Shown in pieces: positions 1 through 61,207 of a DNA stretch of 64,000 nucleotides (within the stretch, counting starts at the first letter, position 1; each line of letters opens with the position of its first letter). Origin of the DNA: Haplodiscus bocki (lineage: Eukaryota); assembly GCA_965655095.1 (NCBI GenBank), contig OZ296648.1:190216001-190280000 (forward strand), read 5' to 3'. The notes below the pieces were generated by a model. The model ran no database searches and was not told the DNA's origin. It was given only the letters and a program-made list of their open reading frames with translations. Made by a program: the position numbers and the translations under genes.

Positions 1-183
1 ATACCGGCTATTGGTTTTGTTTATAAAGTCAGCCATATCTAATTTATCCAAACTAAAAGTATAGTTATTGCGTTTGACCACAGCTTTATTTGCTTCGTAA
101 GTTTTTCCAAGCAGGTTTGGCTCAATATTTTTCAGAAAAGTGTCAACTGTTCCTCGTTTTAACTTTTCGAAAGAAGTAGATAA

Positions 184-4535: not shown

Positions 4536-6083
4536 TCACACTCTCAGTGTGAGCTCGCGCGTCCTGTACTCCTCCTTCTGGTTGATGGACGGCGCTCTCC
4601 TACAGATGTGAAGGGCTTCCAGAGTGAGCAGCTTGATATTGCTATTGGTCCTGTCGATGACGTTAATTTCGGCATCTTGCATCGTTTGGGAGCAGTTGCT
4701 CAGGTGACTTCCCACATGGCTGGCTGGTCTGGCGTGTTCCTGAGTTCTCGTCGTCAAGTGGCGGGTTGTTTGCCCAACGTAGCTGGATTGGCACCCAGGA
4801 CATGTAATTTGGTAGACGACATTACTCAGAAACGTCTTGGGGACTGGCGACTGCAGAGATGGAAGAGCGGTTTTGAGCTTTCGGGTTGTGAAAATAGTTG
4901 AGACTTCCACGGTTCTTCTCAACTTTTTTGCGAACTGATCGCTTTTATCGCCGCGGTATTGAAGAATAAGAGGCATGTTTTTTCCTCTTTCACAGGTTGA
5001 TCTTTCTGAATGGCTGATTGTTTTTTCAATGAGTATCTTATCTAATGTCTGACGGAGAATGGGTTTGTAGAATTGAGGTGGGTACTGATTCTCTTCCCAA
5101 GTCTCGGCTGCTCTTTTCATGCCTTCGGTGAAGTTTTCCCAGCTCGAGGTGGCATCGAAAATTCTATAGATTGTGCCCTCACTGATGTTCTTCTTGTACT
5201 TGACAGGCGCCAGTGCCCCGAGTTGGAGGATTAAACCTGTGTCAGTGGGTTTTTGGTACCACGAGGTGTCTATTTTCTCATTCAATAAGCGCACTTCCAT
5301 GTCCAGAAAAGGCATTGCGTTGTCTTTGAGGGTCTCAATGGTGAATTCCAAGTTTGGGTGCAGGTTGTTGCTGACCTCAAGAATGCGTTCAATGTTGGAT
5401 ACTTTGCCACTCCTCAGTATGTCGTCCACGTATCGTCCAAAGACTTTCGCATCAGGGGTCTCAATGGGGGTCGAGTCTTTCAACTGACACCCACATAGCC
5501 AATTCGTCTGCGATGGCAAGCTTTTTATCTCTGCTAATGTCAAACCTGCGCACTTTCTGTGGAACCAAGATCTACAAGTTGAGCATTGGATAGCATAACT
5601 GTTCTTGCTTACCATCTTTTCACACCCTCCACACCGATATCCCAAATTTTTCTGACGTGGCAGGCTGGGTGGTTGAGGTGCAGGATTTTCCACAGCAGTT
5701 TGGGCCTCATAATTTTTCAGCCAAACATTTGCGAGTATGACAGCAAGGGAAGCGCCCATAGCGACACCGTCTTTCTGGATGTACCAGTCTGACCCACTCA
5801 TGAACCACACATTGGTCACCGCAAATTCCATGAGCTTCTTGAAGGTGGGCTGTTGCAGTTCAGGGGGATTACTTGATGTGTAGAGTGCTTCGCAGGCCAA
5901 CTCGATTGCCTCGTGGACTGGCACACTCATGTAGAGGCTTTTTGCGTCCGTAGAGAAGATGGTTTTGTCCGACTCTAGTGCTAATTGTTCGAGTCTTTGC
6001 CTCATACCTTCAGTCGATGCCTCAATGTTGGTGGCCGGGACCTTATCAAAAAAACTTTGTGAGCCATTTATTGAGCCTGTCAT
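4536..6083 (-). CDS. Penelope RT/GIY-YIG polyprotein fragment containing an in-frame PHD-type zinc finger
   Basis: 515-aa open frame. The first ~10 aa are off-frame, and the true N-terminus lies upstream of a frameshift. YVDD is at 5421-5432 and the PHD-like block at 5487-5633. Confidence 0.88.
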   Translation of the reverse strand: MTGSINGSQSFFDKVPATNIEASTEGMRQRLEQLALESDKTIFSTDAKSLYMSVPVHEAIELACEALYTSSNPPELQQPTFKKLMEFAVTNVWFMSGSDWYIQKDGVAMGASLAVILANVWLKNYEAQTAVENPAPQPPSLPRQKNLGYRCGGCEKMVSKNSYAIQCSTCRSWFHRKCAGLTLAEIKSLPSQTNWLCGCQLKDSTPIETPDAKVFGRYVDDILRSGKVSNIERILEVSNNLHPNLEFTIETLKDNAMPFLDMEVRLLNEKIDTSWYQKPTDTGLILQLGALAPVKYKKNISEGTIYRIFDATSSWENFTEGMKRAAETWEENQYPPQFYKPILRQTLDKILIEKTISHSERSTCERGKNMPLILQYRGDKSDQFAKKLRRTVEVSTIFTTRKLKTALPSLQSPVPKTFLSNVVYQITCPGCQSSYVGQTTRHLTTRTQEHARPASHVGSHLSNCSQTMQDAEINVIDRTNSNIKLLTLEALHICRRAPSINQKEEYRTRELTLRV

Positions 6084-6322
6084 AGGCGCTTCCAGGCAAC
6101 GACAGAATAGGTCTCAGTGGGGTGTTAACTTTGTGTACTTTGGCTAATCCATAAAATCGGGCAGGTTGCGAATCATTACACTTTAATTTTTTGAAGAGGT
6201 CGTCATCTATTCCGCCATTTTTCAGCAGACTTCTCAGACTTTCATTCATATTATCCTATATTTCCAGTATGTTGTTCTTCTTGCTGGTTTTAGTCACTTT
6301 CTCAAATTGGTCACCGTTCAAA

Positions 6323-9085
6323 ATGTATGTATGTACGTATGTATGTATGTATGTAAGACTTTATTACTTTTCATAATGACTAAAAATTAAACAATATGGC
6401 AAACTAAAAATTATAAAACATATTCATCTAATGCAAATAAGCGTTTGAACAACTGTTTCACTCGAGGTTTGAAGATATTAGGCCCATCGAAAGAGTTGAG
6501 ATTGTGCTCCTTCATCAACCAGTTTGACAGGGGAACAATTCGCTGGAAAAAGTGATTGTCGGCCTGCTTTGTACGAGTTGAATTAACCTTGAGAACGGGC
6601 TTCAGGGTAGATCTGGTGTTGTAGTAAAAATTGTCACAGGGGTATGTGATCGATAAAAAGTTGTGAAAATCAAAATCGTACATGCCATTTAGGATTCGGT
6701 TGAGAAAAAGCAGATCATTTATTTTCAGGAGAAGATTTATAGGAAGTAAACCAGACGCGATTAATATAGTCTTGTATGTGGCACCCTTGCATGTCCACTT
6801 TGAGACGTTTTTCTGGAACTGTTCTAATTTAGATAGGTCTTTCTGGTTCGGGGACCAAACTTGTGACCCGTAAAATAATTTTGGCAAAATATAGGTCATA
6901 TACAATTTGATCTTGATTTGGCTATGTAAATGTGGCGGTAGACATCTTCTTAAGGATATAATTCTAATGTAACATGCTTTTGGACGATCAGATATGTGTT
7001 TTGGCCCAGCTAAGTTGCTTGAAAAAGATAGACCGAGACCAACCACGCTTTTTTGAAGAAAATTCTCATGGTCATCCAAGATAAGAATTGGAATATCTGA
7101 AATGTAATTTTGAGACCGAAAATCGAATGAAATGAGCTGTGTCTTTTTGGCATTGAATGATAATTTGTTTACCTGAGACCACTAAGAAAGTGCTAGTATA
7201 TCATTTTGCATTTCTAGAGGGTTGTTATGAATAAGTTTAAGATCATCGGCATTCAGGAAAGTTTTTGAGTGCGATACTTGGGTTGGCAGGTCATTGAAAA
7301 AAACCAAGAATAAGAGTAGACCCAGAATTGATCCCTGAGGCACACCACTGGTGACTGGTAATGACGCTGATATAATATTGTTGAGTTTAACACATTTAAC
7401 GCGATTTGTTAGGAAGCTCCATAGCAAACTTAGCAAAGATCCTCCAATACCAAAAAGGCGTAATTTTGCGAGAAGCGTCGCGTGAGATACGCTATCAAAT
7501 GCTTTTGAGAAATCAAGATAAAGTGCATTACAATCTGTATTTGTGTCAACGTTATTGTAGATAGCCTGCAAATAAATTATTAGTTGTAGCACCGTGGATT
7601 TGCGTCTCATAAAACCAAATTGGGAGCCGGATAGCTGGGCGGAGAAGAAATCATAAAACTTTTTGAACAGTAAGCGCTCAAATACTAAAGATAATTTTGA
7701 TAAACAAGAAATTGGTCTCTAAATACATATCGATTCGATATTACCAGATTTATGAAGGGGTGTTATTATAGCTTGCTTCCATTCGTTTGGCCAATATGAG
7801 TGAATTAACAAGTTCTTTATTAAATTATGGTAACGGATTCCCAGTGCATTAGAAGTCTATAAAATGAAATCACCACTATTAGCATATGTACTAGAACCAC
7901 GTTTTGTTTGTCGTAAGCCCTTTTCGACGTCTTGAATTGTGAATTCGATATTGTTTAAGGTATTTTCAGAGAAATCAGAAAATGGTAGACTATCTTTCTT
8001 GAAAACACTGCAAAAATATTTGTTGAAACCATTTGCTTTCTTAAGATCATCAACTAGGATTTCGTCGTTTAGAGTCATACAAGCTGGTAATGTATTGCTA
8101 CGTTGGAAAGAATTAATCAGTTTATAGCAGTCATTAACGTTCAGATTTGCGTCTACAATATTTTCAATGAATATATGGGTATCAAGAGCAACAGATTCTT
8201 GTACATTGGTGGTTAATATCTGAACTGATGGTCTGGGAATATACGTTGGTTGTCAATTGTTTCTTCTTTGTGTAGTATGGAGCTTGTTGAGCATATGAAT
8301 AGTGTGCGAACTGTAAAAGCTAGGAAATTGGGTTCTTCTTTGCCGCTTACGTTTGAAGAAGGGTTGAATAATGGAGGTTAATTCTCCAATCCAGTGGGAA
8401 TAATAAGCAGTCGTGTCACGTATAAAAAAAAGAAAATAAATTAGATCCGATACACTGATTTATTTTCGGGTAATCTGGTTTAAGGGATAGCATAGGCTGA
8501 GATGTAGATTCGCATGAAGAGTGTGTTCTTGGAATGTCGAACTCAACAAAATAGTGATCAGAAAATGAATTTTCATCTATAGTAAAGTGCGTTGACCCAT
8601 AATTTATAAGCACACAGTCGAAAATTTTTCGAGATTGATGGGTGGGTGAAGGAATAATTTGTTCATACCCGTTTTTAGTTAACATTTCGAGGAATAAGGG
8701 ATACTCTGAAGTAGTGCTTTCAGTCATGCTGTTCCAATCGATTTTTGACATGTTTAAATCACCACAAATAATAATGTTGTCACATTTGGCTTTGGAAGTA
8801 GTTTTATCGATATTATCTGTCAGAATAATATCTTTGATGCGAAAATCACTGGTAAATGGTGGATTGTATATGGTAATAATAAGTACATTGTTATAGATGA
8901 CTGAGCACATAAAATCGGCATTTAGAGATACTTTGCGCACTTCTAAACATTTTCTTGACAGAATTAATACACCGCCGTGTGAACCAGTATTTCTTTCCGA
9001 ACGATTTATAATTGAATAATTGTCGTCAGGAAAAAGGAAAAATTTTGTGTAAAATTTTCATCCAGCCAAGTTTCGGTGAACAAAC
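6323..9085 (-). mobile_element. CR1/L2-like LINE ORF2 (APE + RT), degenerate, with (ACAT)n tail
   Basis: TETWLDE (~9060-9080); IYNPP, IICGDLN and SDHY (8416-8940); LDFSKAFDSVSH, SGVPQGSILG and ADDLK (7182-7610); C-terminal region 6411-7079; (ATGT)n microsatellite at 6323-6354. Confidence 0.88.
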
Positions 9086-10587: not shown

Positions 10588-12400
10588 GTAGTAGTAGTAG
10601 TAGTAGTAGTAGACTTAATTACACTGAGTGCACTACAATTTGCAATCAAAGAAAGAAGTACATAATGGATGTTTACAAAAATGATCAAAAAATTCTCAAT
10701 TAACTTCAGTTTTAAATTGAATGGGGTTTGTAGTTATATCCATCGACGTCTTTTCTTGAATAAATTTGCATATTTGCTCGCTCGGAAGAAGAAATTTTGT
10801 TCACTCTTCTTTTTATTTGTATATGGAATATCAAATGTAATCAAATCGTTACGCCGCAGAGAATATATAGAAGGTAAATTAGCTGTAATATAGTCACTGA
10901 CAGGAAAGTCGAAGCCACAATTAATTAATTTGTTGAACATTACAACATCCTTGAGTTCTATGGCATGTTTAATAGGAAGCACTTTCATTATCAAGAAGCG
11001 ATTTTGGTAACCAGATGCAGAAACAGCATACCAGCGAGAAACGCGTTTTTGGAATCTTCCGAGTTTATCGAAATCGGTTTTTGACGGATACCAAGTTTCT
11101 GAGGCATAAAGAAGTACTGGTAAAATGAAAGTCTCACATAATTTTGATTTTAAGGAAATCTTAAGGTGACCTGGAAGATTAAGCTTCAGCTGATGAAAGG
11201 TTTTGCAACAGGTTTTTAACTTCTCTGTGACGTGATGAGACCAAGTGAGCTTGCAGGAAACATAAATTCCTAGATCTTTAACAAATTCAGATGAATTAAT
11301 TTCTCTTTCGTTAAAAAGTAGAGGTGAGTGTGGTTCTTTTCCAATAACCAAAAACTGAGTCTTAGCAGCATTAAATTGCATGAAATTTATTTTCCACCAC
11401 TCAATACAAGCTTTCAAATCAGATTGTAAGCTCGGCATGGAAGTACATATCATTTTACTGTCGTAAGCATACAAGAAAAATAACGACGTGTTACATACAT
11501 CTGGAAGATCGTTAATGAAGATCACAAATAATAGAGGCCATAATATAGAACTCTGCGGCACACCGCTTGCAACTGAAGCATATTCACTGTAAACATCACC
11601 AATTTTAACACATTGATGGCGGTCAGATAGGGAAGAAGAGAAGAGTTTTAATAGTCCACCACCAATACCAAACTTCCTCAATTTATCAAGCAAAATAGAA
11701 TGAAGGAATCTTGTCAGAATTGTACACCTTACTTTTCAATGCTTGTGAAAAACAAATCCTTTTATCCCATACGTTTTTGAAGGTAACTAGGATAGGGCGC
11801 GATTTGTCTTAGTCATATTTACCAAGGCGACGACACTCCGATATTTCGACCGAACTGCCAGTTTTTGTCAAAATGCTCTCAACATCTTTCTTTTCTTTCA
11901 ATTTCTTCTCATTGAGGAACTTGATGTCATTTTCTGGCATTCCAACAAACTTTAGCTGGAGTTCATGTTCATCGGTTTTCAAATTCAAATCATGTTTTGG
12001 TGCATTTACATGTACCGGTGCAGGGGAAACAAAGGAGCAAGACTGATTGGAAGCTGAGTCAAACTTTTCGGCTAAATTTTCAGTTGTTGCCTGAAGATCG
12101 TCAATTTTTTCATCAATCTTGGATAGCGAAGAAGAGAATGGTTGGGCTTCACAAAGGTGAACTACAGTATCTTTAAGAAGGCATAATAACCAATATTTTG
12201 TAAGTTTTTCGGTTAGAGCCTTGAATCGCTCGCAATCACTAACAGACTTCACCAACTCATCAACCGTAGTGTAATAACCTTTGCCCCCGGGAAGGTAGCT
12301 GGAAGAAGAATTTGCACGAGGTCGGTCTTCAGAGATTAATTAATCTTGTTGATCTCTGATGTGAAAGTAAATCCTTCACACGTAGAGTAAAGCGTAGATC
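10588..12400 (-). mobile_element. Internally deleted CR1/L2-like LINE (ORF1 joined to the RT C-terminal half), (CTA)n tail
   Basis: ORF1-like 11809-12255 (coiled coil, LKFVGMPE, CRRLGKY..RPILV). RT half 10734-11693 (SGVPQSSILWP, YAYD for YADD, KDLGI). (GTA)n at 10588-10612. Confidence 0.85.
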
Positions 12401-27993: not shown

Positions 27994-28293
27994 GTAAGTT
28001 TTTTTTTGCAAGAAAAGGTGTCCGACTATTGCAGTGACTTTTTTGTAAGACGCTTACCCAAAGTTTCTCTTAAAAACAAAAGGGTACCCGTACGGCACTG
28101 AGACAAAAAAATTCGACAGAAAGAATTGATATCTACTTTGTACAAACCGAAAATTCTCCAAAACGCACTCCTAAAGTCTCGTACGCGAAGGAGATATCCT
28201 TCGTACGCGAACACCATATTTTTGAAAATATCAAAACAAAACCAATATTTTTATGATACCCCCTCCACACATCACCAAACGTCAGAAAAACGA

Positions 28294-28458
28294 NNNNNNN
28301 NNNNNNNNNNNNNNNNNNNNNNNNNNNNNNNNNNNNNNNNNNNNNNNNNNNNNNNNNNNNNNNNNNNNNNNNNNNNNNNNNNNNNNNNNNNNNNNNNNNN
28401 NNNNNNNNNNNNNNNNNNNNNNNNNNNNNNNNNNNNNNNNNNNNNNNNNNNNNNNNNN
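28294..28458. other. Assembly gap (165 N) followed by a (TG)n microsatellite
   Basis: Run of N; (TG)n at ~28461-28502. Confidence 0.99.
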
Positions 28459-28837
28459 CCGTGTGTGTGTGTCTTTTTGTTTGTGTGTGTGTGTGTGTGT
28501 GTCCTTCTCTCTCCTCTTGTTCAGTATCTCAACATTTCTGAGGCGTATCGAAGTTTTGTGTCCCGCTGATAGGTTGCGCCGACTTTGAGCTGTGCCAGGC
28601 TTGTTCTACTGTAACAAAAGCCGGGAAAACCTTTTAATGATGGAGAAGAGCGTGACTTGTTTCTGAAATTCTTTTGGAATATGCAGAGGTGAGTGTCACG
28701 AAAAATTTTGGTATTAGCTGTTTCGCAGAATTTCTTGCAAAATCAAGAGGCTCCAAAAACTGGTGTTTGTTTGTGTTTTTGAAGGAAATATTTGGTGTCC
28801 TGAAGGAAATGGGGTGTTATATATGTGGTACGGAGCT

Positions 28838-29240
28838 TTCAAAGTAGTTGGCATTCGTGAATCTTAAACAAAGCATCGGAAATACCATAAAATCGTCTCA
28901 TCTCGTCTGCCATTTGTCAAAATTGACACCTCCAGAGCTAATTGTCAAAGTCTATCATTATAATTAAAATTCACGTTATCAAAAATGTCTAATTAAAATT
29001 CACGTTATCAAAAATGTCTAATTAAAATTCACGTTATCAAAAATGTCTAGACTTTTTCAATCAATAGGGACGTTTTTAAACATTTTGACTGAAAGGCAGA
29101 ATGTGGATTTAAAACCGGCCTGTGCTTAGTTTTTTATCCTGTCCAAAACTTACATTTTGTGACTTCATCTGAGAGTCTAGTCATCTAGTGCAAAGGGTCA
29201 AAAGGGGCGTGTTTTGAAACATTTTGACAGGTATTGGTTT
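28838..29240 (+). repeat. Dispersed repeat copy closely similar to ~49803-50150, with a 29-bp unit triplicated at 28961-29047
   Basis: ctttcaaagtagttggcattcgtgaatctta... occurs at both loci. taattaaaattcacgttatcaaaaatgtc is present x3 here and x1 at ~49923. Confidence 0.85.
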
Positions 29241-31677
29241 ATTTTCGCGTTCCGAGAGTGCAAAATTTTTTAGCATTGGTCTAAAAGCGTTCCAATATAA
29301 CAGCGTTCTAAAAGTTTACAGTGTTTTGAATATGAGTCGGTAACCAAGACGTCGGAACTTCTTCCAAATTGGCGCATAGCGCTTGCCAATCACCAAAAAT
29401 GACACATGCCCTGAATCTCAACTTTTGAAAATTTTGGTTCAGATTATGAAAGTTGTTTACACTTATTTGACCGAAATTATGCAACTTTGTTTTCGATATT
29501 TCAATCAAGAGTCACAAGTCATCATGGTTGACAAGTGAGATAGTAAATTTTTGAAGCTGTTTTGACGTCTTGTTGACAACTATTAGCCATTTTGAGAGTT
29601 CCGAATTTTGTAGAAGTAACGTTTTTCTTGAGACACCTAGATTTTTGCGTTCTTTAATGCGTGAATCTTTTAATCATTGGGCTGCAAAATGGAGAATCTA
29701 AAAATACATGATTGACAGTTCAACTTTTCGAATATTAGACACCGTGAGAAAGACTAATCTCAAATCGAATTTTGAGAACATTCTTTCGTTAGACATCTGT
29801 TGTAGTATTTCTAAAAGTGTATCCGATCAAACTTCAGATATCTCTGAGGACCTTTAATGTGTAAGTTTGATCTTTGATCTCAACTGAGAAGTGAGAATAT
29901 GTCACGAAGTTCTGCTTGGCCTCTGTGTAGCAACTGTCTTCCAATTCACGCCGAGTTTTGCTCAAAATGGTTATTCGACAGTTTCTTCTGGCCATCTCGA
30001 CTATACAAAATGCCATCTGATTTTTACAAAACTTCCTTCTGCTTTCCAAATCGACTTCTTAACTACAAATGCATCAAGTACGCTAAAAACGCTGGGCTCT
30101 TACTCTGATGAAGTTCTTCGAGCCTAGTTCATAACAGAGAATTTATTTTGAGTGTAGATGGTGCCTCTTCAATCCCAGGGTGCCTGTTTTTTTCTGTACA
30201 AATTTTGTTTTTTTTTTGTAACTTCATCAGAGTCTGGTGGTGTTGTGAGAATGGTCAACAATGACCTTTTTAAGATATATGGGAAGTACTGATTTCTGCA
30301 TTTTAAAAAAAGCTTTTTTTCCAAACACAAGCTTGATCAAAAATAACAACACCGTGCTAAAAGGTCTGGTTTGAAATAGGAATATTTTGAGTATCGAAAG
30401 TGTGGTGCGGGATCTTGTTCGTTTTGACTTGGCACACAGAGTCTCTATTTCATAAACTTTGATTTGTAAAATAGTAAAACTTGAAAAGGACATGACTATC
30501 AGATCACATGATTAATATGAGGCATTTTCACAGTTAGTTGTCTCAATTCAATTTCTTCGAACAAATGATTGATTGATGGCTGGTGTAGTTTTCCGAAGTG
30601 TAAGTCGGGTATCCGATCAATATTAAATGTCTTTCTGTATCTGCGATGGGTTGCGTTTGTTTTGATGTAAACTGGCAAGTGAATGTGTAGCGAAGTTCCG
30701 CTTTGCCTCTGTGCTCATGTCCTTAAATTGGCCACCCGCCAGCTTTTTACGCTGGACGAGCGTTTTCGTTACGTTCACAACTTGCGCAAGATGATAGTGA
30801 GCCTAATATTGCCAGTATAAAGGAATGGTCTAATGGTTAATAGCAAGGAGTTTTTGTTGATGAACTGCCATCCGTGGTTCCAATCCCATCGCTGCAAAAA
30901 AGTTTGTGATTGATTTCATCTTTCTCGTTTTTGGTGCTTTTTTCGGTCAAAAATGACTAATTTCTCAATTGGCAGACATCAATTTCTGGTGCGTTTGAGG
31001 ATTTTTTCAACTTCACTCAGAAGCGAAAATTTTCTTCATGTTTACCGATAATTCCTATTGTTCCGAAAAAAAACCTTTACGTTCTCGTGGAAATTGAGCT
31101 CAAAGTTCTCCCCCTATGGCTTTTTGCTTTTGATTTTTGTTTTCCTATCAGTTCAAATTTTTCGCGCGCAGTTTCGGGAAGCTGAAACCAAGTTTTAATT
31201 TTGAATTTCTTGGCAACTTTTGTGGGAAAAGTTGCATGTTTTCGTGTTTTTGAGTTTACAGTAATTTTACTGTTTTTTCCGCAACTTTCGCTTTTTTGAA
31301 TCACGTTTTTAACTAAGCATCCAGCATAATTCAATACGAAAAGTAAGTTGAGAACTCTTCACAAAAGCTCCCAGAAACTTACGTATTTGGTTTTAAAGCA
31401 GGCCAGAAGAAGCCAAGTTCCCGACTTTCCCAGAACTTTCAAGCTTTTTCCTTTGAGATCAATTTTCTAGCTACGAGACCAGGTTAGTTAATACAATTAC
31501 GGAACCACGAGAGTTGTTGAATATAGTGAGAAGTTCCAAAGTCGTTGGTTATTGAGTTATTTAGGCGGTTTACAGAAAACAGGAAATGTATTGTTCCGGT
31601 TTTCGCTGGATTTTCACTCTGTCTGCTGAGTATTTTTTTAGCTTCACGCTGGTCCGAAACCATCGTCAGCTGACATT

Positions 31678-32675
31678 AATAATATAGTAAACTCCGGCTT
31701 TGCCACTAACTTCGCTTCGCTCGCCTGGTAGCAAATCCGTAGTTTACCCGTTCCCTTCGCTTCGCTCCGGTCACTTATATTATTGTTCGACCCTACGGGT
31801 CTCATCTTTACTCGCTCCGCTCGTGGGATGCTCGACTAACGTCTCGCATAGTAAATAATATCTACGTATAACTTACCTTTGTTTAGTGATGTATACATAA
31901 CCATGCTCGTATTCGGTAAAATGTTTTTTTCTCATATATAACATATATTTCCACCTTTATGTGAACATATAATTAACAGAAAATTTTACACGTACACATT
32001 TACATTACAAGCGAGACTGCACTACCAGTTATGTCGACATAATACACGAGATTAAAAATACCACTACCAATTATCTCGACATAACGCATACACGAGATTG
32101 AAAGTTCACTACTACCAATTATGTCGACATAACGCATACACGAGACTGAAAAGTTCACCATTATCATCTATGTCGACATAACAGAATATGTGTATTTGTT
32201 TTTGTCTCTTTCTATTCTGTCTCCTATAGCAGATTGGCACTGTAGAAGGACATCGACAAAAGTGCAGGCTTGGCGGAGTGTTTGGGGGTTCACTCCTTGA
32301 TACGTATCCCCAGTCTTTGTCGTACAATCGCTATGATGCTATAGGAGGAACTTTCCATGTCTTGATGCTTGAAAAAGTTGACTAGATCGAGGGGAACTCT
32401 GCCAGGAATGCTCACTCGGATTTGCTAGAAATAGTAGATTACAGAGTTGGCCAGTGGAGTTTTTGCAAAACTTTTTCTCCAAGGAATACTTTCATGCGAA
32501 ATATTGTGAATTGTTTTCCGATATCCATTTACGACATGCAAAATGGAAATGATTGTTTAACTCATTACAATGAGTTTTTACATATTCTGGATTTTGAGAT
32601 AGTATTATAAAAAATTGTATTTGCATTATTGGTATAGGAAATTTTCAAAAGTAAGTTCTATTTATATTTGACAGA
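31678..32675 (+). repeat. Polinton left terminal inverted repeat
   Basis: Ungapped reverse complement of ~45026-46023; 31806-32441 is identical to 45260-45895. Confidence 0.97.
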
Positions 32676-32830
32676 TTACTATAAATTTTTTATTGTTAGT
32701 TTATGTGTAAAACCATTTTCTCGTATGTAATAAATAACATGTTGTTTCATTTTTTTATCGATAACAGTTTTATTTTTTATTATATAAAACTGTAAAGACA
32801 ATGAATGATAATTCAAATTTAATCTTCAAA

Positions 32831-33280
32831 CTAAATCACAATAGGTTTGACTATCCCGTTTTTCATTACTTTTCTATTAATACTTTTAATACATTTTATA
32901 ATATGTCGAGGAGCATTCTTATAATAAGATAAAGGTGCAGAATTCGTTAACGACAAATAAAATTCTTCATAGTTGTTATCAATATTTGGTAAATGGATAG
33001 GTTCTTCTATCACATGTTCAGGACTTTTTGTAGGTATAGTTCCATTTTCATATATCTCATTTCCATTCTCGATCCACACATGTAAGCAATAATATTTATT
33101 ATTTCTTATTGAAAAGTTTTTAATGATTTTAGACTCTGGAACATATTGATTGAATAAGTAATTTCCCAAAACACAAACACCACTAATGTTATTTTTCTGA
33201 AATTCTTTCATAAAGATTTCTATTAAATCTTCTAATATGTTTTTAAATATTACAATATTTTTACAATAAAAAAATGACAT
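32831..33280 (-). CDS. Polinton accessory ORF, possible transglutaminase-like (Cys-His) protein
   Basis: Uninterrupted 149-aa frame with GVCVLGN ... LHVWIE ... IYE.GT. Confidence 0.45.
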   Translation of the reverse strand: MSFFYCKNIVIFKNILEDLIEIFMKEFQKNNISGVCVLGNYLFNQYVPESKIIKNFSIRNNKYYCLHVWIENGNEIYENGTIPTKSPEHVIEEPIHLPNIDNNYEEFYLSLTNSAPLSYYKNAPRHIIKCIKSINRKVMKNGIVKPIVI

Positions 33281-33359
33281 ATTAATTTTTGTAACAATTT
33301 CACAAATACATTATTGATTACAGACTCTTGAATCATTTTCATTATAGTTGTCATATAAC

Positions 33360-36300
33360 ATGAATTATAATAAGGAAGCATATAACCAAATTCGTTTGGA
33401 GCTTCTCTTTTCAATAGATTTAAGTTAGCTTCGAATTCTTTATTTTCGTTAATTTGATTATTAAATTTATTACACCTTCTTTTTTCCTTACATTCATTAC
33501 AAAATCTCATTTTCGTACGTATAATTATTCCGCTATTAGGCGATTTTTTCCAGCTTTTAGGCAAGAAAGCAGATTTTTTTAGCTTCTATCATTTTAAGAT
33601 ATTGAGAACGATCCAATAATCGTTTACTATCATTGAATCCTTTGAAGGTTTTATGATCTTGTACAATACCAGATTTATCTATAGTTAAACAGTACTTTAT
33701 TTTTGGTGCTAGAAATAAACCATAAAATATTCCGCCTGTTTTATAATCATTTTTGCCTTGACATATCTCTTCTCCAACTAGTTTAGCTTTATCCAACACA
33801 TCCCAATATACTTTTCAATTTATAGTGAATCGGTATCTGAATAATATCTTTTATTTTTGTAGAATCCATCTTTTTCTCTGATAAATTTATTCATAATTCT
33901 TTTACTATTGCTTAAGATAAAAGCTCCGAGATGTGCAGGCAGATTGTTTTTAATGTCACAATCGTCATCTAATCTCTCATCTTTTCCCTTTTTCACAATA
34001 TAATTTTCATTAGGCAATTTCCAATAATGCAAAATATTTTCGTCAAATTCTGTTTTCATCCAAGTTTCTGACTTACAATAATATTATTCATTAATATCTT
34101 TTCGTATTTGAACTCCTTATAAACTGTTCAATAATAATTTAACTAACCCTTGCATTAAATCGTTTTTTTTTCGTCTTATATTTTTGTCTTTTCTATAACT
34201 TTTCTCAAAGGTGATATCTTTAAGTTTTCTCGATAAATAACACCTCCGTAAATTCGCATTACATTCCCACCTATTTTAACAATTTCTTGAATATCAACAC
34301 TAGTTAAAGAATCTATAATATTATCATTTCGCATTCTATTAACTTCTATGATTTTATTTTTTTCTTTGATCGGTAATTCTTGAACTATAAGATTTGGTGG
34401 ATTGTAATTTTTCATTTTTAAAATTGCGCTATCATTGCAATCTTGATTAAAAGATTGATCATTGAAATCGTTAACCAACACCTCGTTCATATAAGGTTTA
34501 AATGTATAACCAGTTCCTTTTTTTTAGGATAAACACTATCATTATCCCACATTGCAGAAGGATATAAACTAGTAGCGTCAAAATCCATTGGAGTTTTTCA
34601 AATCTAATTTTAACAACTCCTTATGAAATGGTAACATGTTAAGTTTTTTGTTAATATAATCAGTTTTTTTCCTTTCGGTTAATTTTTCTATAATCCTCAT
34701 ATTTTGAATCCAATTCTTTTGCATATAGTTTTTCATATTTGTTTAAAAATTCAAAATACCTCTTAGTAGATCACATATGTTACCGTTAACGTTTAATTTT
34801 TTTGAAATAATAATAAAAACCTCGTCGCTAGTTTTAGATTTATAATGTTCAATCAAAGAATTACATCTACCGCCCTTAATCGGATTACGTACAAAATTTC
34901 TCATAAAGGATCGGCGTATATAAAATTTGGTTGGTCGTTTTCATCTCTTAAATTATTGAAATATTTTTTTGCTGAAGAGGGTAATGTTAACGAGTTTTTC
35001 ATACTCAATTCTGTCAAATCTTCCATACCCATTGTATATCTAGCATAACAAAAAGCTGTTGATAATACGTCATTTTTAACATAAGGTAACCATTTGTTTT
35101 TCGTAGCTTCCCAAGTATCCTCATAATTTTTATCATGTTCCATTTCTTGTTTTAATAATGAAGGTTGTAATTCATAACTGATGCCTATTTTTTTCAAAAT
35201 TCTCTTATTATGAACTCTTTCACATCTAAAATGAACATATTGAAGTTTTTTTTTATTTTCATCTACATATCCATTAATTATTTGAAGTGAAATAATACCA
35301 GCTCCGTTTTTAATTAATTTAACAACGCTTCGCCATTGAGGTAGATTGTTTAATACTACATAACTATTAAAACCAGATCCATTATGCGCTATCATATATA
35401 GATTATATTCAAATATCTTATTTTTTACTTTTTAGCTTCTCCCTTTAATGATGAAACTTGATCTAACATATCATTAATACAACCACTTGGTTTAAAAACA
35501 AAACAATCATTTAAACCTTTTGATATTTTTTTTCTGATATACCTCGATTGTATTTACCTGATGTTTTACTTAGTTTATATATACAATTACAATACGGAAC
35601 AGCTCTATCTTTCTTATCAGTCTCTAAATCAAACACAATATTATTGCTTAATGGAGATTGAACTTCTTCAGGTTTGTATTCATGTTTAAAAAAACTTTTA
35701 ACGTGTTTGTCAGATATAACATTATCAATAACTTTAAAGTTTAATTTCAACTTCACTTCTATTGCTTGATTAAAACAAATACGATTTGATTTCCAAATTA
35801 AACAGAATTGATTATTATGTATGAACGATGATTTATTTCTTTGAGTTGTATTTCGCGATTTTATTCTCGTTCCAGCAAAACAACCAATGTTGATATTATA
35901 TTTTTTACAAAATGGTTGAATTCTAGCAGAGGTCATTACTCCTGATCGATATTTTTCATTTCTAATGAAATCCTTCTGTAAAATCTTTATTAGTGAAATA
36001 GTTGATACATTTTATAAAACCGAACACAGAAGTTGGTATATAACAGTTTTGTCCACGATATTCGAGAATCTCTTTCATGTAATTAGCACCTTAGCATAAG
36101 CACTTAGTTTAACAACTTTGAATTGGGGTGTGTTTAATTTGTAAACATAACAGTAAAAGTAACATTTTCGCTATCATAATCAATATCTATTGCATTTATA
36201 TAACTTTCAAAATCATCCATATTTCTAAATCTGATTTGTTTTTCGTTCAACGGGTCCTATAACCATCAATCCATTTAACTCAAACTTACACGTGTAATCT

Positions 36301-36590
36301 ATTAATTTTTCATTTTTAATTTCATGTGATTTTAAACCATTTACATATATTTTATTGCTTGTTGCTAATTCAAAAAATCTACCTGAATCAATGTCTTGTT
36401 CTATCATTTTTTCTCTTTTTTGCTTTCTTTCTTTTTGTTTTTTTAAATTAATTTCGTTTTGTTTTCTAATCAAAGCTCTTTTTTTATTTACTTCATATTG
36501 CTTTTTCTTTTGTAATTTTGTTTTTTGTGATTGATGATTGTCTCTATATCGTTTCACAGCTAATCGAGTTTTGTTCATTACACTGTTCAT
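33360..36590 (-). pseudogene. Protein-primed family B DNA polymerase (pPolB), disrupted
   Basis: Exo I VFDLET, Exo II AHNGSGFN, Exo III YVKND. Motif A DFDATSLYPSAM (~34550-34588), motif B KLLLNSL*G (~34115-34140), motif C YSDTDS (~33826-33843), then FLAPKIKYC. The N-terminal limit is uncertain. Confidence 0.93.
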
Positions 36591-36640
36591 TTATAAAAAT
36601 AAATTTTTTGAAAAATAGCTTTTCAATAAAAACGTAATAA

Positions 36641-47464: not shown

Positions 47465-50400
47465 GTAAGGCCAAAATCAGTACAGTTAATTAGAGTCGGC
47501 CGTTTTTTATGCAGCTCATCATGTAAATTTCATTACTTGTACTAGTAGTAAACCCAAACAGTGACACAAAATCGAGCAAGACGCCCGGCAAACAGTGGGA
47601 AATTTTCCTTCCGTTTTGGGGAACAAACTTTGAAAAAATCGTACTTCAAAGCACAAATTGTCAAAAAAGTTGTTCGAAATTTGCCCTAGAACTAAATTGA
47701 TGATTCTTCCGAGCGAAATTTAGGCAAAAACAATTTTATTGGAAAAGCGAATTTATTAGATGGATTTTTCGACAACTCTGCAACAATTTGGCGAAATAAA
47801 TTTTTGAAGGTGCATTGTATGCTGATTGCGCAGTTGGCAGATGTCTAAAAAAACCGAACATTGGATCAATGGTTCAACTTCCATGTATGAAACATGGGCG
47901 GAAAGTAAAAAGGATTTCTTGCCCTCACAAAGTCGACAATAACTCCTCAACTAGGTAGGCTGGCCTGCTTCCCGTACCTTTTTCCCCGAAGTCTTCTCGA
48001 GTTTTCAGTTTAAGTTCGACGTAATGAAAATCTCACTTCCGCACTGCTTCTTGCAATATGAAAAGTCAATTTCGATGATTGACAGGTAAAATTGAGGCTT
48101 TTCGTGGAGGTAACCAATATCAACTATCTTGCGACCTGAACTTGGTCATCATGCTTTTTAGCTTCAATTTTCTGTTGTCAGTGGTGTGACAATATTTGCC
48201 GACAACAAGCTTGTTCTTTATCTTTACGTCATCAACACCTGAGACAATGTCTAGACACATTTTTATAGCGCTCTGGTGATGATGTTCTCTTTATGAAAAA
48301 CGGGGAGTTTGTTTCGCAGTTCTATCCAAGACCAAGAAAAAAAATCGATAGCTCAAATTTATTTTTAGATAGACGCAGAAAAAGCTGTTAAATTTTTTAC
48401 CTTGCTACTTTCTCCGTGCTTGATGTTAGGAGATGCAAATTTGTAAGTGCTCATTGGATGTTCAAACAATAGCAATTTTTTTTTGAATTTTAACGACGTA
48501 CTCATGAAGTGAAAGTATTAATATAAAGATGCGTCTGATTTTACAATATTTAACAACTTTTTATCAGACAGTGAGTGATGAATTTGATAGTGTTATACAT
48601 AATTCAATAAATCTGTCTTGATTGTGAAAGCATTTTGATCAATCAAAAAAACCTTCCTGATGTTGAGGTTGAATTTTCGATTATGGGCAACTGATAATTG
48701 AAATTGGCTCGATTTTCAATCTGCGCAGATGTTTTTGAACATATCTTGCGAGCTTTCGAACCAGGGATTTAAAACTGGTTTGCTGGGGTGCAAATAATAT
48801 CTTCCCTCTTAGATGCAGTTGGGTGGGTATTTGAACGGAAATGAGCAGTTCCTTGAAAACATGTTGCTAAGTTTCCTAGCTGATGAAAGATGATCCTACT
48901 TCGAACATGAACAAACTCGACCTTATCTGTTGCATTGTCTCAAAAAAAGGGAAATGGTGAGAAAAAATTTATGAGTTATCATTCTGAGTTACCGACTGAT
49001 GATATCAATCTGTAAATAAAGCGAGATGTAGGTGGCATTTGGTTTTAAAGTAACCAGTTGGAAAAATTTTCGCAACAACTCCGAATTTAGATGTCTCAAT
49101 CTTGTTTATTTTACTCAGGCGAAAACCCGTACTATCATCCAAATTTCAAGTCTGTTTTTCCAAAAGTACGTGGCTTTACAGAGAATATTCCTTGACCTGC
49201 TTTGGAAGAGACTGTTCAATAAAATTATAATATTGCTAAAAGGTGCCTTACCCGCGGTTGCAAGTGGAGGAAGTACAGAACTACATCAAAGGTCCGTTTT
49301 GTTATAATGAACGTGGAGCTAAAAACTTGATTTTGAGTAATGTACCTAAAAATATGTTAAACTTTCACCTTTTCGTATAAAAGTTTCGGCAACTCAAGCC
49401 ATCGAACACCGAAATTTCAGCGTGTCAATGGGCATGCCCTATTCTGAGCGGCACTAGGTTTGTTCAATTCATGTAATTTTTAGCCATAAAAATGCTATTT
49501 TTGCTTCAAGAATTCTTTGAATGAGAAGGAGTACGTAAGATCAAAAATAGGCTGTACTCTGAAACTTCTGAAGGTCTCAAACGTAGAATGCGAAGGGATA
49601 GATAACATCAGAGGTACTTCACCATCAATCTATGCCATTTTTCAATCATCGATAATCGCAAATACGTTGGTTGAACTTCAAAGAAAAAAATGCGTTACTT
49701 CAATCGGTACGAAGTCTAGACGAATCTGCTAATTTGATCAAATTTACAATATTTCTCACTATCTGTCGACCCAAAAAAACATTAAATTCGAAGTTTTTGA
49801 ACTTTCAAAGTAGTTGGCATTCGTGAATCTTAACAAAACATCGGAAATACCTTAAAATTGTCTCGTCTCGTCTGCCATTCGTCAAAATTGACGCCTCCAG
49901 AGCTTATCAAAGTGTATCATGATAATTAAAATTCACGTTGTCAAAAATGTCTAGACTTTTTCAATCAATAGGGACGTTTCTTTAACATTTTGACTTAAAG
50001 GCAGAATGTGGATTGGAAACCGGCTTCTGCTTAGATTTTTTATCCGGTCCAAAATTTGCATTTTTTTGATGTCATCAGAGTCTAGTCATCTAGGGCAAAC
50101 CGGTCAAAAATGGCCTATTTTGGCAGGCATTTGTTCATTTTCGCGTTTTATTTACAAACCTTAAACATTGTGCAGCAAATGGGCGTAACCTGAAAAAGCA
50201 CGATTGACGTAAACTTTTCGTGTATGAGATCCTGTGACAGGTACTTGTCTCAATTTGACTTTTTCCAGCAAACTTTTAATCGACAGATGTAGTAGTATTT
50301 CTAAAAGTGTCAATCGCATCTCTGATCATGGTTTCAAATGGCTTTTGGGATCCGTGATCTCAACTGACAAGTCAGAATGTGTTGCGAAGTTCCGCTTCGT

Positions 50401-59021: not shown

Positions 59022-59042
59022 GTTGAAGCGTATGGTGATGAT

Positions 59043-60305
59043 GGTTACATGTCATTTCGTCCTACGCCATTTCAACCGCTGCAATTTTAACCGCTGCAAT
59101 TTCAACCGTTTACACTTTCAACCGCTTGCCTTTTCGACCGCTTGCAAATTCAACCGCCACAAATTCGACCTATTTAATTAAGTTCAAGGTTATTCAATTT
59201 TTTCAAGACGTTCAAAAACAAGTAAAGTAATTATAGAATCAATTAAACGTCATCAATAAGACAGTGTTACGTAATTTCCAAAGATCATATTGGACAACTA
59301 CCATATGTACCAAACTTGAAAATGATGTTTCTGAACGTCATTAGGAAGAAATCAGATGCAATTAGCATCTCACTAGGACAGCAAACGCGAAGGGACTTTG
59401 ATTTCTTGTCACCGACTTTGAACATTTTTCTAAAGGGTTAGCCAGCCCGTAGTCCAAATGTACTTCCGATCTCACAAGAGACAATGTCTCTTGGATTAAA
59501 CTGTACAGCCAGTCATGTTAATGTTCTGAGACGCACTCCGGGAGGCTGCAAGGAGGTGTCAAGACAAAAAATCAAATATTCCTTCACATAATGATTGTTT
59601 TTCTGCAAAAATAAACAAAAACGGAATCTTATTCAGAAAACAAAAAATATTTACAGAAAAAAACATACCAAAAATCTCTAAACGTTTTTTATCTAAATTT
59701 TGCTACTACTCTAAGATATGGCACAGCTTTTTCGAACTCATAAGTGCTTCGAATATTTTGCATCTGTTTTTTTATTTTTTCGTATCGGGGGCGCTTGGGC
59801 ACAATAATCCGGCAGTTTCTTGAACATATTTAAACTGTTATTACAGTGGATACAGTTATTAGTTGATTGTTTCTGGTTATATGAGTGGCCGTCGTGAAGT
59901 GCAATTTTTCCGCCTCGGTTTGATTCTATACTTTGAATTTGCATTTTGAAACGTCTGATAGGTGCTGCTACTGGAATACTGAATGGCTCAAAATTTTTAC
60001 ACAATTTCGATTACGATTAGGTGCGATCTGTGTTAATTTCCTGTTATCGGTGTGTTAATTGCTGAATCCGGTAAGTACGACGCTTTTAGATTCAAACCTT
60101 AATTATTACGTTTAAAAAGGATTAATCTTAATTACAATTAGTTACTGTAATTAATTGATTACTAGATAATTGAAACGGTTGAATTTGCGGTGGTTGAAAT
60201 TGCACGCGGTTGAAATGGCACGCGGTTGAAGGTGTGAACGGTTGAAAGTGTGAACGGTTCAAATTGCAGCGGTTGAAATGGCATAGGACTAAATGTCCTG
60301 ACACC
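59043..60305 (-). mobile_element. Non-autonomous Mutator-like element (MULE) with a FLYWCH-like remnant
   Basis: Perfect 9-bp TSD GGTGATGAT (59034-59042 and 60306-60314). TIRs of ~120 bp with TTCAACCG subterminal repeats. Internal ESNRGGKIALHDGHSY...IHC. Confidence 0.88.
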
Positions 60306-61207
60306 GGTGATGATATTTTTGGGCAGTAAACGCTGAGTTCAGGTCATATTAATTTCATTTTTGTCGTACATCGAAAAAAAGATTCGTGACTGAACGGTTT
60401 AGCGGTTAAGAAGTTAACTTGCACAGCGGAGAAAATTCATTCTAGTTCTAATTAGCGAATAAACTAACATCTGCTTTTACATTCGTTCGTTTTCAAGTGA
60501 TTGATTGTCCCAATTTTTTTGTGATGTTTGTCATTTTTTGGGCAGCCTATTTTGTTGCGTTAGCAAAATAACGTACCCATTGGCGTCAAGGTAGCTCAAT
60601 TCATTTTTTCACGCTGCTAATCTCTCAGTGTAAAGCCTAGCGTACTTGGTGCCTAAGCTGGAGTGGCTGAGGAACGAATCCGATTTCCACATAACAGCTA
60701 GTATCGGCAAAAGTTTTAGCAAAGTTATCGCTGTTTTCGCATCTCAAGTAGATGTGCTTTCTTTCAGACCGAACGGTTGAATGTGCATTGACGCTCTAGT
60801 TGGTGTCACATCGGTTTTTCTTGACCTATTCTAGATTGTTAGTTTAAAATTTGCATACTTTTCACGCTTTGCGGTGTTTTCAAATTTATCTTGTTTCAAC
60901 GAATGTGTGACAACAGTTTACTCAAGGAGAGTATTACGGAGCCGAGTTAACCCACTTTCAACTCTAGCCAATGTAGGTGTTTTTCAAACCACCCAGGCAT
61001 TCGAAACGAAGTATGTTATCTGGAGATTTCTCAGTAAATTTAGTTCTCAACGCATCCATGACAATTTTCCCCGAAAGTGCACTTTCCCAGTTCACGACCC
61101 TTTTAACCCGACAACTCAGTCTGATTCAACCTGAGAAGTGCAACTGTCCAAATTTTCTTGGCCTGGAAGAATTCCAAATGTAATGACGGAAGTTTCACAT
61201 ACAGAAC

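Follow-up and report, generated by a model that had tools for sequence, protein, structure and literature searches.

Two arms of a dead transposable element in Haplodiscus bocki are identical over 636 bp, and the sequence on either side of this stretch differs between the arms at a tenth or more of its positions. How could a perfect core come to lie between diverged flanks? The element is located in a 64,000-nucleotide stretch of the assembly (GCA_965655095.1, contig OZ296648.1, forward-strand positions 190,216,001 to 190,280,000), which we refer to as the window and whose positions, counted from its first letter, are used throughout. An earlier note on this DNA had described the identical core and had proposed several explanations for it, which are considered below together with the decay of the element and its place in a host gene.

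The two arms and the identical core

The arms are terminal inverted repeats (TIRs), each composed of an outer flank, the core and an inner flank:

31678..31805, +, left arm outer flank; 13/128 differences, terminal stem with short hairpin tips
31806..32441, +, left arm identical core, 636 bp; exact reverse complement of 45260-45895
32020..32182, +, 48-bp tandem array inside the core; 3.5 copies, 84% matches
32442..32702, +, left arm inner flank; 37 differences in its first 247 bp
45003..45259, -, right arm inner flank, partner of the left inner flank
45260..45895, -, right arm identical core, 636 bp
45896..46023, -, right arm outer flank

In the assembled sequence, as distinct from reads, the two cores showed no difference in 636 positions, as the earlier note had reported, and the match was maximal on both sides. 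An ungapped alignment of the whole arms (31678 to about 32702 and about 45003 to 46023) covers 1011 bp and contains 50 mismatches, i.e., 13/128 in the outer flank (10.2%), 0/636 in the core and 37/247 in the inner flank (15.0%). The outer count is the same as that given in the note, and the inner flank was found to be diverged as stated there, over 247 bp rather than about 230 bp; its mismatches comprised 24 of the 201 positions adjoining the core and 13 of the 46 at the eroded inner edge. When 50 mismatches were placed uniformly, a run of 636 bp was obtained in none of 200,000 trials (the longest was 263). The borders of the core were sharp, with 6 and 11 mismatches within 60 bp on its two sides and no shoulder.

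In both arms, three units of the 48-bp array carry a perfect 12-14-bp palindrome and one unit does not. This imperfect unit common to both arms is a weak hint that the core may carry shared decay. A coding role for the core was rejected, as no match was found among the 394 fetched proteins compared. We also sought the DNA of other copies in genome contigs: 257 pattern matches were obtained, none of them confirmed, and the repeat motif gave 0 matches.

The terminal 150 nt of each arm (31678-31827 and 45874-46023) form a stem in which short hairpin-tip motifs occur at three positions (37, 82 and 137); this is possibly a replication origin structure. On the 3'-end strand, these outer 150 nt folded better than shuffled sequences (z -3.1 and -3.75), and on the other strand the z values were -1.3 to -1.4.

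A decayed element in a host intron

The arms delimit an AT-rich element of 14,346 bp (its length after an internal deletion; interior GC 26-30%), which lies in an intron of a host gene together with an assembly gap. The following features were detected:

27994..47229, +, intron of the host tyrosylprotein sulfotransferase gene, GT-AG, 19.2 kb, containing the element
28294..28458, assembly gap of 165 bases beside a (GT)n run, 3.2 kb from the left arm
31672..31677, left target site duplication GACATT, perfect; boundary ambiguous by one base
33367..36590, -, protein-primed DNA polymerase B pseudogene; 14 frameshifts, 3 in-frame stops
36923..37142, +, retroviral-type (rve) integrase, N-terminal ~73 codons; 2 stops, truncated by the internal deletion
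37135..37497, -, probable double-jelly-roll major capsid protein, N-terminal piece; feature scores 0.95-0.97, stops at the integrase deletion
38573..38943, -, A32-like packaging ATPase remnant; PF04665, E 5.7e-6, above cut-off
42845..43042, -, possible cysteine protease remnant; label from motif
43999..44112, -, helix-turn-helix (HTH) remnant; PF13412, E 4e-5
46024..46029, right target site duplication GACATT, perfect match to the left copy

In the sections of PMC10748475 covered here, Mavericks/Polintons are described as elements of 13-25 kb with TIRs of 100-1500 bp and a 5-8-bp target duplication, which carry a protein-primed PolB, a retroviral-type integrase, a packaging ATPase and capsid genes. 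The length of the present element, its TIRs of ~1025 bp and its 6-bp target duplication (the typical value) fall within these ranges, and PolB, integrase and ATPase are likewise shared. Because its features match those given in the sections of PMC10748475 and PMC8097293 covered here, we regard it as being of Maverick/Polinton type and as an ordinary degraded fossil of this group. According to the part of PMC8097293 covered, Maverick loci are mostly eroded fossils (96% in vertebrates). The present element differs from vertebrate Mavericks in that its ends begin with AA, the AG/AGT-repeat end motifs described in that part being absent, and in that integrase and capsid gene are cut by one deletion.

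The polymerase pseudogene is 73-75% identical to intact relatives, one of which (P0017) matches PF03175 with E 1e-21. The direct Pfam match of the integrase piece was weak (E 0.066), and a PDB search with it returned just two chance matches (E 0.2-0.5); however, 8 of 10 longer integrase relatives tested match PF00665, one of them above the curated cut-off. For the capsid piece there was no Pfam match; the clusters behind its feature scores include capsid clusters, in which the Pfam share is 10-23% of members, with a recognition value below threshold. The integrase and the probable capsid remnants, which are on opposite strands, converge and both end at ~37140 (junction 37135-37142). As all alignments end abruptly at this point, a single deletion appears to have taken away the remainder of both genes. 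The remnant at 42845..43042 is possibly, by its motif, that of a cysteine protease; adenovirus-type protease and minor capsid protein had no Pfam match, and their best feature score was 0.79. A six-frame Pfam scan of the whole element yielded one weak HTH match only, and an Rfam scan of the 64-kb window yielded 0 matches. A second integrase remnant is located at the edge of the window (25-171, -), where two integrase relatives matched weakly (E about 1e-4).

The element is old and dead. In about 1049 aligned codons of the polymerase, 14 frameshifts and 3 in-frame stops were found, the same against each of three intact relatives (3/3). The earlier note had described the internal genes as full of stops; they are indeed broken, but in the polymerase mainly by frameshifts. 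It is unlikely that these frameshifts are read errors, as none occurred in 2.6 kb composed of three host exons and a 525-codon retroelement frame (P 1e-5 at the polymerase rate). Among the 120 polymerase matches listed, 8 are intact and at least 1000 aa long; they are mutually 84-89% identical, with one pair at 95%. Seven of them were used for an age test (P0082 was omitted as a near-duplicate). At columns invariant in these seven, the present copy was altered at 96/581 (16.5%), whereas each intact relative, when left out in turn, differed at 2.5-5.5%. By simulation, this excess corresponds to about 5-6% neutral substitution per lineage. The divergence of the flanks is 37/329, or 11.2% (95% interval 8-15%), with the eroded last 46 bp omitted, and 13.3% when these are included. 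The former value is about twice the polymerase estimate, which argues that the flanks give the true age of the element and that the core was overwritten later.

A repeat-embedded gene is represented in both inner flanks by its C-terminal 60 codons (32689-32510, -, and 45012-45191, +), with one in-frame stop in the left copy. The gene, of 157-191 aa, is whole in four relatives (4 matches among 87 candidates); its front part is missing in the right arm and at best weakly matched in the left. Between the arms, 22 of the 60 codons differ, and the 4 synonymous differences (18%) are close to the neutral expectation of 18.7%, which rules out purifying selection between the arms in the inner flank. 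Seven of the amino-acid changes are private to the left arm and another 5 to the right arm; at 5 more, both states are present among the four relatives, and at 1 neither is. Similarly, in the outer flank, just one arm keeps the pair at 5/5 stem positions that differ between the arms (left 3, right 2). The private changes and the split stem damage show that the arms decayed independently on either side of the core. They also rule out, as the main cause, a derivation of the arms from two subfamilies (12/18 amino-acid differences are private to a single arm), and the 5/18 differences that occur both ways in relatives leave room for a small older component.

It should be noted that the polymerase stops are low for this age, with 3 against 7-10 expected at 5-6% (P 0.01-0.1). 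Pooled over three genes, there are 6 against 9.3-11.8 expected (P 0.05-0.18), and the age from stops alone would be 0.4-5%. Indels are also scarce in the flanks, with 0 in 375 ungapped bases against 3.3 expected (P 0.04) and 1-2 at the inner boundary.

The exons bordering the host intron cover adjoining residues 31-164 and 165-237 of the solved TPST2 chain, which points to an animal as the host. Several other repeats were found in the window. A perfect 3 x 29-bp tandem repeat at 28961-29049, 500 bp from the gap, has a paralogous repeat at 49923 with one unit, and it may reflect either recent slippage or an assembly effect. An open 525-codon frame at 4536-6113 (-), which we take to be Penelope-like, gave weak reverse-transcriptase and weak C-terminal GIY-YIG matches and has a PHD finger (E 2e-5) inside the reverse-transcriptase region, immediately before the YVDD motif, which is an unusual insertion. 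Two decayed LINE-type retroelements (6411-9057, -, and 10734-12339, -) have reverse-transcriptase and endonuclease matches. A non-coding element of 1.26 kb at 59034-60314, presumably Mutator-like, has a perfect 9-bp target duplication, 16-bp subrepeats and arms that are 82% identical; an identical core was sought in these arms, which are too short for a strong control, and none was found (longest run 22 of 148 columns).

Gene conversion or assembly artefact

The observations to be explained are the identity and its sharp edges, the decay that affects the interior and, in each arm, both flanks, and the matching ages of polymerase and flanks. Recent arm-to-arm gene conversion, which the earlier note had listed first, is the best reading of these data, with about an even chance of being correct. 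A Maverick/Polinton-type element would have entered the host intron long ago and decayed neutrally, its terminal repeats drifting about 11% apart. Very recently, 636 bp of one arm would have been overwritten with the sequence of the other in a single event. The most likely biological route is host homologous recombination, in which the damaged arm (with a break or gap) would have been repaired on the template of its partner, inverted and 12.3 kb away; this would be gene conversion within the element, and the interior may or may not have been inverted in the process. We infer from the sequence such an overwrite in the animal, as well as its mechanism and timing.

Neutral decay after insertion should have affected the core too, as argued in the note: the lowest age estimate still predicts 4.6 substitutions and 5.5 frameshift-type indels between the arms in this stretch. 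The absence of any difference bounds its divergence at 0.47% (95%), so a real event would fall within the last 3.5-4.7% of the residence of the element. A one-off event at a uniformly random time leaves zero differences with a chance of 1.2-1.6%. As there is no shoulder at the edges, the core would have been overwritten late and in one step.

Two features used to recognize intra-element conversion, a tract identical beyond chance and repeats that had diverged independently beforehand, were both found here. Additional support comes from intra-element conversion of long terminal repeats (LTRs) in plants, where tracts are mostly 100-1000 bp, and in the part of that study covered here conversion is reported to be commoner within than between elements and to bias dating by terminal repeats (PMC7251063). 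In insertion sequences, conversion between TIRs accompanies inversion (PMC3004938, part covered). On the other hand, the covered part of PMC3924818 counts against this reading, since in yeast and rodents conversion needs about 200 bp of identity and is strongly reduced between diverged repeats, and human LTR conversion tracts are 14-450 bp at most in the covered part of PMC4921805, shorter than the present one. Among the papers listed on TIR conversion, in Mavericks/Polintons and in general, we found none that describes the process in Mavericks in its title or the opening of its abstract, which is weak evidence of absence. The word "conversion" does not occur in the searched parts of PMC10748475 and PMC8097293, and in the part of a preprint covered (10.64898/2026.10.13.758929) the term is used for phage genes only.

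An assembly artefact is nearly as likely as conversion, and the relative weight of these two readings is a matter of judgement. The true cores would then differ like the flanks, and the assembler would have merged the arms as alleles, or filled a gap in one arm or corrected that arm with reads of the other. The earlier note had named an artefact as the main alternative; it deserves more weight than it was given there, and bubble merging or gap filling fits a gapped assembly better than the polishing that the note suggested. Judging from the 165-base gap at a microsatellite, the assembly was probably scaffolded and built with short reads as part of its input. Merging is expected to leave sharp edges and exactly zero differences, and an artefact always leaves zero.

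Merging was simulated with a divergence limit of 10%. At 11.2% divergence and k of 27-41, a tract of at least 600 bp was obtained in 2-7% of trials, and at 9% divergence in 20-54%. However, the frequency was at most 0.3% at 13.3% divergence, or with k of 51 and above (at 11.2-13.3%). Beyond the core, 72 bp separate it from the next exact run (36 bp); they differ at 10.0-11.7%, just at or above such a limit, and were left unmerged, which fits this reading. In contrast, at k of 21-25 qualifying bubbles stay unmerged in the window (one in the 13152/13773 repeat pair, and two in the present arms at k 21), which argues against k of 25 or less, and an unmerged one-base difference between exact runs of 26 and 55 bp in a repeat pair of the window other than these arms contradicts merging at small k. 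A bubble-crush setting is described for Platanus (PMC7423139, part covered). With regard to read error, all 50 differences in the flanks are substitutions and none is an indel, which is not the pattern of raw long reads, and the frameshift-free host exons and retroelement frame described above indicate that the assembly is not generally error-ridden.

Other explanations and comparison with known systems

The remaining explanations are improbable. There is a small chance that an already dead element was recently re-mobilised in trans and that its arms were partly corrected in a panhandle intermediate, as the earlier note had also proposed. Panhandle replication should keep the outermost sequence matched; the outermost 128 bp are diverged, the mismatches beginning at position 3, and both arms have a damaged terminal stem. 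Moreover, no sister copy was seen: the best 120 of 485 polymerase-fragment matches consist of the element's own (a single member on a single contig) and 119 at 79% identity or less. These findings speak against panhandle correction, even though the intact polymerases among these matches are possible helpers and the low counts of stops and flank indels allow a more complex history. The note had taken the perfect target duplication (GACATT on both sides) as a sign of trans-mobilisation. The duplication is indeed perfect, but at this age 6 bp would still be unchanged in both copies with a probability of 0.42-0.53, so that this is uninformative.

Ongoing concerted evolution is less probable still. 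Repeated conversion would keep the core matched, perhaps seeded by the palindromic array, and the edges would have escaped long ago. The tandem array does lie inside the core, and repeated events would make a lucky recent timing unnecessary; yet by simple arithmetic on position, a tract of this length would include the array in about 87% of cases, the mismatches show no gradient toward the core in either flank (KS P 0.76 and 0.23), and the flanks carry the full age of the element. Selection on the duplex, which the note had also suggested, is the least probable. The core would be kept perfect through pairing of the arms in host pre-mRNA (with the element looped out of the intron, or small-RNA silencing), and both arms do lie in one intron with a calculated duplex of about -1704 kcal/mol. 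However, after random divergence of 13% the pairing of the core still amounts to about -888 kcal/mol (range -835 to -957, 20 trials), and that of the flanks, diverged as they are, to -1.2 to -1.65 kcal/mol per bp, so that no single mismatch would matter and selection would permit compensated or wobble changes.

Returning to arm-to-arm conversion, the closest parallel is that within LTR retrotransposons and endogenous retroviruses, where the same identical patch of 100-1000 bp lies between older flanks (PMC7251063, part covered). The present case differs in that the repeats are inverted, so that a crossover inverts rather than deletes, in that the background divergence is high (11-13%), and in that the tract is long compared with the 450 bp or less of human LTRs (PMC4921805, part covered). 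ISWpi1 of Wolbachia shows the same recombination between its own TIRs, which erases arm differences and is able to invert the interior (PMC3004938, part covered); however, its repeats are 23 bp with one mismatch in a bacterium, whereas here they are of 1 kb in an animal intron and about 70-85 expected differences would have been erased. Collapsed or merged repeats of draft assemblies share with the present arms the perfect identity, the sharp ends and a gapped scaffold, but the merged copies are usually nearly identical, and at 11-13% divergence particular settings were needed in the simulation.

A much broader reading is that dead Mavericks recombine repeatedly between their own kilobase TIRs even when these differ by more than 10%, and do so at a site characteristic of the family, such as the palindromic tandem array or a point where the arms are joined by fold-back of host pre-mRNA, with identical cores and flipped intronic interiors recurring genome-wide. 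We consider this unlikely.

Neither conversion nor artefact would amount to a new kind of system, as the process is already known in LTR elements and insertion sequences. If the core is an artefact, then perfect repeat cores in draft assemblies are no sign of recent activity. If it is real, it would be a clean single case in which inverted repeats that had diverged by about 11% underwent conversion over a long tract. In that event, the ages of Mavericks estimated from repeat identity can be too young (94.7% over the whole arm against about 87-89% in the flanks), and an invertible segment of 12 kb would be predicted within the host intron.
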